64,000 nucleotides of DNA, from the NCBI RefSeq assembly GCF_057098645.1, contig NZ_CM169472.1. The stretch is one strand, 5' to 3'. Positions 29,904 to 31,836 of this stretch are shown here, one piece after another. The notes below the pieces were generated by a model, which ran no database searches, was not told the DNA's origin, and saw nothing but the letters and a program-made list of their open reading frames with translations. Every line of letters starts with the position of its first letter. The stretch's first letter is position 1. The translations under genes were made by a program, and so were the position numbers.

Positions 29904-30383
29904 TTACCAGATGGCAGGTTGTAGTACTGCTAGCGAAGTGAGTATTTCACGCAACGTCTCCCCATCAGGAAACACCAACTCCGGCGCGATTTCAAACAGC
30001 GGCCACAGCATAAATCCACGATTTTTCATATCGTAGTGCGGAACGGTCAGTCGTTCAGTATTTATCACTTCATTACCAAACAGCATGATGTCGAGATCCA
30101 GCGTGCGCGGTCCCCAGCGTTCAGCTTTACGGACGCGACCTTGTTGTAACTCAATACGCTGTGTGTGATTGAGTAGCTCTTCGGGTGCAAGAGAGGTTTC
30201 CAGCGCCACGGCTGCGTTTAAGTAATCGGGTTGATCTTGCGGCCCCAGCGGTGGAGTGCGGTAAAACGAAGAAACGGCAAGAATGTGGCTTTCAGGGATA
30301 TCGCCTAATGCTTTCAGGGCAGCATTGACCTGCTCCAGCGGAGAGGCCAGATTGCTGCCTATGGCAATATACGCCACTGTCAT
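29904..30383 (-). CDS. folK: 2-amino-4-hydroxy-6-hydroxymethyldihydropteridine pyrophosphokinase (HPPK)
   Basis: 159-aa [60 protein letters not shown]...; overlaps the pcnB 3' end by 4 nt. Confidence 0.95.
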
Positions 30384-31777
30384 GCGGTACCCTCACGACG
30401 TGGTGCGCGTTTGCGTGGACGACGAGTACGACGACGCGGTGACGGTTCTTCATCCAGCTCGTTGAGCATCCCTTTTTGGTCTGGTGGCGCGGAAACCTGG
30501 AACTCACCCCACCATTTCACCAGACGCTGCAGTTCAGCGTTACGCTCAACTTCAGCTCGCAAGGCCAACAGGTCATAAGCCGCACGGAACTTAGGATGCT
30601 CCAGCAGTTTCCATGCGCGTTTACCCTGACGTCGGGACATACGCAACTGCAACTGCCAGATATCGCGGGTTAACGTCGTCAGACGTTTCGGGATTGCCAG
30701 TGAACGGCAGGCTTCGTCCAGCACGTCGTTCATCGCCAGCGCGAAAGCGTCGTGATAGGTCAGGCCGCTTTCTTGGGCGATCTTCTGTGCCGTCTCCAGC
30801 AGTGGGTACCAGAACATGGCGGCAAACAGGAACGCCGGGTTCACGCGCATATCGTTATGGATACGCGTATCGGTATTCTTCAGCACCTGTTCAATGATCC
30901 GCTCCATCGGGCTGTCGCCATTTTCCGTGAAGTAACGGGTAATGGTCGGGAACAGTGGCTGGAACAGATGATATTCACACAGCAGTTTATAGGTTTCGTA
31001 ACCGTAGCCCGCTTGTAGCAGTTTAAGCGATTCTTCAAACAGGCGTGCCGGTGGGATATCGTTCAGCAGGGTAGCGAGGCGAGGGATCGGTTCTGCGGTT
31101 TCCGGGCTGATGCGCATACCCAATTTGGCGGCAAAACGTACTGCGCGCAGCATACGTACCGGATCTTCACGGTAGCGCGTTTCCGGGTTACCAATCAGAC
31201 GGATAACACCGTCCTTCAGATCCTTCATACCGCCAACGTAATCACGGACGGTAAAATCCGCTACGCTGTAATACAGGCTGTTGATAGTGAAATCGCGGCG
31301 CTGGGCGTCTTCTTCGATGGAGCCGAAAATGTTGTCGCGCAGCAACATGCCGTTTTGCCCGCGTTGGGAGGTCGTGCGGTCGCTGACGTTACCTTCGTGG
31401 TGTCCACGGAAGGTCGCAACTTCGATAATCTCCGGGCCAAACATCACATGAGCCAGACGGAAACGGCGACCCACCAGGCGGCAGTTACGGAACAGTTTGC
31501 GCACCTGCTCAGGCGTGGCGTTAGTGGTTACGTCAAAATCTTTCGGCTTTTTGCCGAGTAACAGGTCGCGCACGCCGCCGCCAACCAGCCAGGCTTCGTA
31601 TCCCGCTTTATTGAGCCTGTACATTACCTTCAGGGCATTTTCACTGATATCTTTGCGAGAAATAGCATGCTGCTCACGCGGGATCACCGTCACCTGTGGA
31701 CGGGCGACTGCCTGTTCAGCCTCGCTTTCCTCGCGGCTTAGCACCTTGCGGCAAAAATTAGCGACTCGGGTAAAAAT
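30380..31777 (-). CDS. pcnB: Poly(A) polymerase I
   Basis: ORF 30380..31798 (first codon TTG). The characterised 465-aa PcnB begins at the Ile codon ATT (reverse complement of 31775-31777), which I recall as a documented non-canonical start; nucleotidyltransferase motif [18 protein letters not shown] is present. Confidence 0.9.
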
Positions 31778-31836
31778 AGTACACCTCGGTAGTGTCAAAC
31801 ATCATTCAGGACAAAAAAATAGCGGCTAATCATAGC

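Follow-up and report, generated by a model that had tools for sequence, protein, structure and literature searches.

Which codon initiates translation of pcnB, the gene for poly(A) polymerase I (PAP I), is a question raised by the minus strand of the DNA analysed here (64,000 nucleotides in all, hereafter the window). The longest form of its open reading frame with a canonical initiation codon begins at a TTG (31798) and would encode 472 aa, and an in-frame ATT lies seven codons further on, at 31777-31775. The initial annotation had taken this ATT as the true start, had held its inefficiency responsible for low levels of the polymerase and had expected automated annotation to miss it. An AUU start of pcnB was reportedly described in E. 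coli K-12 by Binns & Masters in 2002 (Mol Microbiol 44:1287). This AUU start is an established feature, placed correctly in the annotation of reference genomes, and its rediscovery in another E. coli strain adds nothing new.

Identity of the gene and its locus

The minus-strand ORF at 30380-31798 corresponds to E. coli pcnB. Minus-strand genes in the window follow the order sfsA, dksA, gluQ (31837-32733), pcnB, folK (29904-30383) and then a fimbrial gene, which is the E. coli arrangement; the order gluQ-pcnB-folK was found at this locus and in K-12, and it is kept in distant orthologues. A stretch of 1701 bases at pcnB matched E. coli O145:H28 RM12761 with 100% identity, and of 5426 complete E. 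coli genomes, 5424 had it as a single copy. Two of the complete genomes gave no match and three of the 5424 matches were located on plasmid-labelled records; these cases are probably mislabelled replicons or deletions.

Compared with K-12 MG1655 (b0143, NP_414685.4), the window gene displayed 13 synonymous nucleotide differences and no amino acid difference, and the 104 nt located 5′ of the ATT were identical in both strains. The protein matched the NCBIfam equivalog NF008634 with 996.3 bits (cutoff 702), residues 1-464 aligning with positions 1-468 of the 469 of the profile. Pfam domains precomputed for the representative of the 465-aa cluster were the PolyA_pol head (PF01743), the RNA-binding region (PF12627) and the arginine-rich C-terminus (PF12626), and the same trio was given for every match in the protein-cluster search. 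Structure chains 3AQK, 3AQL, 3AQM, and 3AQN matched residues 28/29-442 (E-values from 1.5e-283 to 7.3e-285), the alignment with 3AQM being identical throughout; as the solved structures cover residues 28-442, they are uninformative on the N-terminus. Judging from its identity with the characterised enzyme, the window protein would carry out template-independent poly(A) addition. At the other end of the gene, the ATGA overlap between the stop codon of pcnB and the start codon of folK suggests translational coupling inside a pcnB-folK operon.

Reading frame and candidate initiation codons

The initial annotation had stated that pcnB has no ATG near its 5′ end and that the longest ORF opens at the TTG. 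Both statements were borne out by the sequence: the first in-frame ATG is only found at codon 52 of the 465-aa form, and the 472-aa frame is closed by a TGA shortly upstream of the TTG (Table 1). Codon, frame and identity with K-12 PAP I were likewise in agreement with a 465-aa protein starting at the ATT, from which the frame extends over 1398 nt, that is, 465 codons plus the stop.

Table 1. Features of the pcnB locus and their coordinates in the window.
Feature	Position	Strand	Evidence
Sigma-70-like promoter match (TTCTCA, 17 nt spacer, TATGAT)	31829..31857	minus	In the gluQ 3′ end; candidate for the published pB promoter
In-frame TGA closing the pcnB frame upstream	31802..31804	minus	Direct reading
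Upstream in-frame TTG (472-aa start, rejected)	31796..31798	minus	No Shine-Dalgarno; canonical start at codon -7 limited to 28/80 species
Shine-Dalgarno GAGGTG, 4 nt 5′ of ATT	31782..31787	minus	Positions -10 to -5, 100% conserved in 80 species; -9.8 kcal/mol
ATT initiation codon	31775..31777	minus	Invariant in 87/87 loci; used as the start by RefSeq in K-12 and 7 further genomes
pcnB coding sequence, AUU to TGA	30380..31777	minus	1398 nt, 465 aa; RefSeq CDS bounds of a 100%-identical genome map here
GTG codon 12, false start behind 454-aa ab initio calls	31742..31744	minus	No Shine-Dalgarno (-0.1 kcal/mol)
First in-frame ATG, codon 52 of the 465-aa form	31622..31624	minus	ATG in only 23/80 species
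ATGA overlap: pcnB stop TGA (30382-30380), folK start ATG (30383-30381)	30380..30383	minus	RefSeq CDSs share 4 nt

Ribosome-binding signal and candidate upstream promoter

The 20 nt preceding the ATT pair with the 3′ end of 16S rRNA at -9.8 kcal/mol; about 2% of random 20-mers drawn from the window bind at least this strongly. The same calculation gave -2.3 kcal/mol for the TTG, -0.1 kcal/mol for GTG codon 12 (GTG12) and -4.0 kcal/mol for ATG codon 52 (ATG52). An AGGUGA located before GTG codon 31 (GTG31) reached -8.2 kcal/mol, but with a spacing of just 2 nt.

Several papers term the pcnB ribosome-binding site 'poor', yet GAGGTG is an invariant, perfect 6-nt complement of the anti-Shine-Dalgarno sequence. 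The wording fits the TTG, which is devoid of a Shine-Dalgarno sequence and which the introduction of one of these papers gives as the start; it was probably carried over from the older assignment of the start to that codon.

Within the 3′ end of gluQ, a sigma-70-like match (Table 1) may correspond to pB, a published promoter, and its TATGATTAGCCGC recurs in other genera in the alignments of pcnB upstream regions. A different role for the TTG, as part of a TTGACA -35 box (31798-31793), was discarded, as the promoter scan gave no matching -10 partner.

Conservation of the start among species and in the E. coli population

One scan of species-representative genomes yielded orthologues from 80 species with 86-99% protein identity, Enterobacteriaceae being the only family returned. 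Both the ATT and GAGGTG were invariant in all of the 87 pcnB loci from these species. Per-base conservation ranged from 30 to 76% upstream of position -12, was 97-100% at positions -11 to -5, variable from -4 to -1, and again 97-100% from +1 to +29.

These data bear on the upstream TTG as the start, in which case the protein would have 472 aa and the ATT would be an internal isoleucine codon. The TTG opens the longest ORF with a canonical start, at least 1000 contigs carry the 472-aa form, as do about a dozen clusters with NCBI names, the introduction of PMC3561954 names UUG as the start codon of pcnB, and Salmonella carries an ATG at the position of the TTG. However, the TTG lacks a Shine-Dalgarno sequence, a canonical start was found at codon -7 in only 28 of the 80 species, and 43 of them offered no ATG, GTG or TTG at all from the preceding in-frame stop to the ATT, a distance of just 5 codons in some Enterobacteriaceae. 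Moreover, the seven additional codons of the 472-aa form displayed a conservation of 38-76%, as non-coding sequence would, the curated K-12 and RefSeq annotations are placed on the ATT and not on the TTG, and the discussion of PMC3561954 names AUU. We consider initiation at the TTG very improbable.

The ATG of Salmonella was observed at codon -7 in Salmonella enterica subsp. diarizonae and arizonae (loci L027 and L028), where the ATT and GAGGTG are intact. A 472-aa Salmonella protein cluster comprises 2921 members; this longer form is probably a mis-call, though this is less certain than for E. coli.

A main start located downstream of the ATT, at GTG12 (454 aa), at GTG codons 29 or 31 (31693 and 31687) or at ATG52, would turn everything preceding it into 5′ UTR. 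Ab initio pipelines do choose such sites, giving rise to 454-aa and 447-aa forms, and residue 28 is the first one in the crystallised constructs. All 80 species have GTG12, but this codon has no Shine-Dalgarno sequence, and GTG31 is preceded by the strongly pairing AGGUGA but at a distance of only 2 nt; ATG52 occurs in only 23/80 species, and this codon, proposed by Liu & Parkinson in 1989, has been rejected in the literature (PMC2939334). The downstream candidates are either without a Shine-Dalgarno sequence or not conserved. Residues 2-12 are, besides, homologous to the N-terminal segment of distant orthologues, and the NF008634 profile spans residue 1 onward. Such a downstream main start is hardly credible. 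Codon 29 (31691-31693) is GTG in Escherichia and ATG in most other Enterobacteriaceae (alignment of loci L009-L087); with the AGGUGA close by in E. coli and the constructs crystallised from residue 28, it might mark an internal start or a processing site.

Outside the Enterobacteriaceae, Candidatus Erwinia haradaeae, Thorsellia kenyensis and CP043324.1 carry GAGGTG-N4-ATT, with 62-67% protein identity; in the first of them pcnB is annotated from this ATT. Orthologues with 45-48% identity presented an ATG or GTG start at the equivalent N-terminus, with an in-frame stop 0-10 codons upstream; the starts of L092 (GTG), L093 (ATG), and L094 (ATG) fall within a few residues of the position equivalent to the ATT. 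The proteins at this distance begin with short basic/hydrophobic segments (MIRKLIKVFTRK, MLQFLKKVFHKS, and VNTIITFIKKLL), and PcnB residues 2-12 are homologous to this kind of segment. Since the distant orthologues have their ATG or GTG start at this same N-terminus, the ATT marks the ancestral N-terminus. From the sequences compared, the non-canonical start looks like a derived state of the Enterobacterales, whose boundary is not placeable with such thin sampling. In Enterobacteriaceae no position of codons 2-11 varies, so that coding and non-coding constraint are indistinguishable within the family; a coding-type substitution pattern in these codons is visible only in the more distant orthologues.

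Three of the distant loci presented peculiarities. In Thorsellia kenyensis (L091; JBHLXE010000108.1, 753-767) GAGGTGTATT-ATT is conserved and a GTG located 12 codons after it was taken as the start of the deposited protein, which is probably an N-terminally truncated annotation. The orthologue at L090 (714-800 of a Logan SRR20241965 contig) shares 54% identity and sits in a gluQ-pcnB-folK-panB arrangement. Its frame encodes the conserved N-terminal segment, RRVIELCKKVIG, before the ATG that was called as the start, and ahead of this segment there are only ATC and CTG, with no ATG, GTG or TTG; its pcnB may have another non-canonical start. In CP043324.1 (L088; 1201-2698, from a 5-Mb genome) pcnB is called as two genes of 316 and 150 aa, reflecting either a frameshift pseudogene or a sequencing error.

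At the population level, the 60 nt from -28 to +32 around the ATT were identical in 5416 of the 5424 complete E. coli genomes, and the version of this 60-mer with ATG had no exact match in the same 5424 genomes. One of the E. coli variants was inspected and showed a change at position -2, with the ATT codon intact. The ATT is accepted as the pcnB start because the ribosome-binding signal, the comparison across species and the population data agree: the codon, its Shine-Dalgarno sequence, their invariance and the lack of a conserved alternative were all observed here. We conclude with high confidence that translation of pcnB starts at this AUU, directed by GAGGUG, and that this limits the yield of PAP I.

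Synonymous constraint and RNA structure in the 5′ coding region

Synonymous constraint was measured as the fraction of the majority codon at conserved degenerate codons of 78 Enterobacteriaceae, in 9-codon windows over the first 430 codons of the gene. Codons 2-12 (31774-31742) and 36-50 (about 31672-31628), both on the minus strand, were the two most constrained stretches, with ranks 1 and 2 of 378 windows. The top values corresponded to codons 2-10 (0.94) and 38-46 (0.94), the mean of the gene being 0.72, and the value of codons 2-10 was reached by none of 10000 random 9-codon sets. The synonymous constraint in both stretches is real. It could have an ordinary cause, such as what initiation demands of this region or the published pS1 promoter inside the gene (PMC2939334). 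Alternatively, the AUU start would be embedded in a larger nucleotide-level regulatory element that tunes AUU initiation or the fate of the mRNA, which we regard as unlikely; such an element might, for example, rely on a helix between distant segments, on a site bound by some factor or on pS1.

The second stretch lies just upstream of codon 52, and this strong conservation is among the points in favor of a second, shorter PAP I made from ATG52 on transcripts of the sigma-S promoter pS1 under particular stresses, next to the main product started at the AUU. PMC2939334 reports pS1 activity in vitro as well as in living ppGpp0 cells in stationary phase, and two bands seen in anti-PAP I Western blots were read as a possible second, shorter isoform; the sequence of the PS1.rev primer of that work overlaps ATG52. 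In contrast, pS1 is silent in wild-type cells and the authors themselves call the shorter isoform hypothetical (PMC2939334), and ATG52, apart from its poor conservation, has a weak Shine-Dalgarno sequence. An additional isoform of this kind is a possibility to which we give little weight. ATG52 was also discarded as the cause of the conservation of codons 36-50, being an ATG in so few of the species.

RNAalifold paired positions +14 to +27 (31764-31751) with +122 to +137 (31656-31641), forming 13 bp plus inner helices. This long-range helix between the conserved blocks was rejected as unsupported, its arms being invariant in 76 distinct Enterobacteriaceae rows, in which no covariation is possible; paired cells amounted to 99.1% in the alignment vs. 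98.9% in shuffles. When L088 and L089 were counted by hand, nine substitutions were found in the 13 arm pairs, three of them keeping the pairing, six breaking it and none being compensatory. Other parts of the CDS would form better duplexes with the first arm, and the minimum-energy fold of the single E. coli sequence pairs differently.

A mini-hairpin in which the Shine-Dalgarno region (-11 to -5) would pair with +6 to +11 (31767-31788, minus strand), leaving the AUU in a 9-nt loop, was not supported either. It was predicted in most species, all of its bases being invariant within the family, and L088 and Thorsellia have lost its pairing. Over its full length, the initiation region folded no more stably than shuffles (z = +1.2), and an Rfam search of 30000-33500 found no family, with one chance match only.

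Annotation of the start in public collections

The expectation that automated annotation usually mis-calls this start held for ab initio callers, which produce 472-, 454- and 447-aa forms, but not for RefSeq, where the ATT is used in 8/8 sampled genomes: the CDS started on the ATT in the seven genomes sampled (89-100% identity) as well as in the reference K-12 record. The choice made by RefSeq is probably guided by the NF008634 equivalog, which aligns from residue 1. The exact 472-aa and 465-aa sequences were each present on at least 1000 contigs, and 454-aa and 468-aa forms also exist; those of 472 and 454 aa occur widely in public data. Among the best 120 protein clusters, 48 were held only by ENA, Logan or JGI, and none of these had 464-466 aa; they were mostly of 446-458 aa, starting from GTG12 or from a lineage-specific ATG at codon 19. 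Clusters with NCBI names and 471-472 aa numbered about a dozen among the same best 120. The practical message is an annotation caveat: callers limited to ATG, GTG and TTG misplace the N-terminus of PcnB across Enterobacteriaceae, and the resulting forms fill public protein collections.

Consequences for PAP I levels

Initiation at AUU, the effect on expression of changing this codon, the limit that it sets and the toxicity of excess PAP I are taken here from the literature. For AUU initiation of pcnB and a limit at translation, Binns & Masters (2002) is cited by PMC2939334, bioRxiv 10.1101/063800, PMC3561954, PMC5499595, PMC4245954, PMC9764084, and PMC4447247, the experimental proof of the start being credited to these authors; according to PMC3561954, they had already noted AUU in pcnB homologues of other Proteobacteria. 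A cell contains about 30-50 molecules of PAP I and is killed by overexpression of the enzyme (PMC3561954), and in reporters AUU initiates at about 1-2% of the level of AUG (bioRxiv 10.1101/063800). The literature search found no statement on pcnB derived from start-site profiling (retapamulin, ribosome profiling) or from N-terminal proteomics. The proposal of the initial annotation that an inefficient AUU keeps poly(A) polymerase low is supported.

The best account of the locus is as follows. The strong and correctly spaced GAGGUG would bring the ribosome to the AUU, which would be read as formyl-methionine by the initiator tRNA. AUU is a near-cognate start, used at a few percent of the rate of AUG and disfavoured by IF3; that IF3 is the discriminating factor for the pcnB mRNA may be supposed from its general biology and from infC, and in the literature searched no statement to this effect concerned pcnB itself. 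The yield of PAP I per transcript would be low because the AUU initiates weakly and IF3 discriminates against it, and this low yield would matter because an excess of PAP I is toxic. The weak start is part of what holds a toxic enzyme at a few dozen molecules per cell.

Comparison with known AUU-initiated genes

The closest known case is pcnB of E. coli K-12 (b0143) itself, which is the same gene with the same annotated ATT and presents no substantive difference from that of the window, whose strain is O145:H28-like. Together with infC, which encodes IF3, pcnB makes up the two accepted AUU-initiated genes of E. coli (bioRxiv 10.1101/063800, PMC5499595, PMC4447247), and in both of them the AUU start codon limits expression. 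In contrast, infC is autoregulated because its product, IF3, itself discriminates against AUU, whereas PAP I has no known role in the selection of start codons; the AUU of pcnB would therefore act as a fixed attenuator, setting a low ceiling, and not as a feedback sensor. The two genes also differ in the codon used, infC having AUU or AUC across bacteria (PMC5499595) and pcnB only ATT in the 83 ATT-bearing species, with canonical starts in more distant lineages. A further parallel is ebpA of Enterococcus faecalis, in which, as in pcnB, a rare ATT start attenuates expression and which was originally mis-annotated at a downstream ATG (PMC4447247); it differs from pcnB in that it encodes an unrelated protein, a pilus tip adhesin, in a Gram-positive host.
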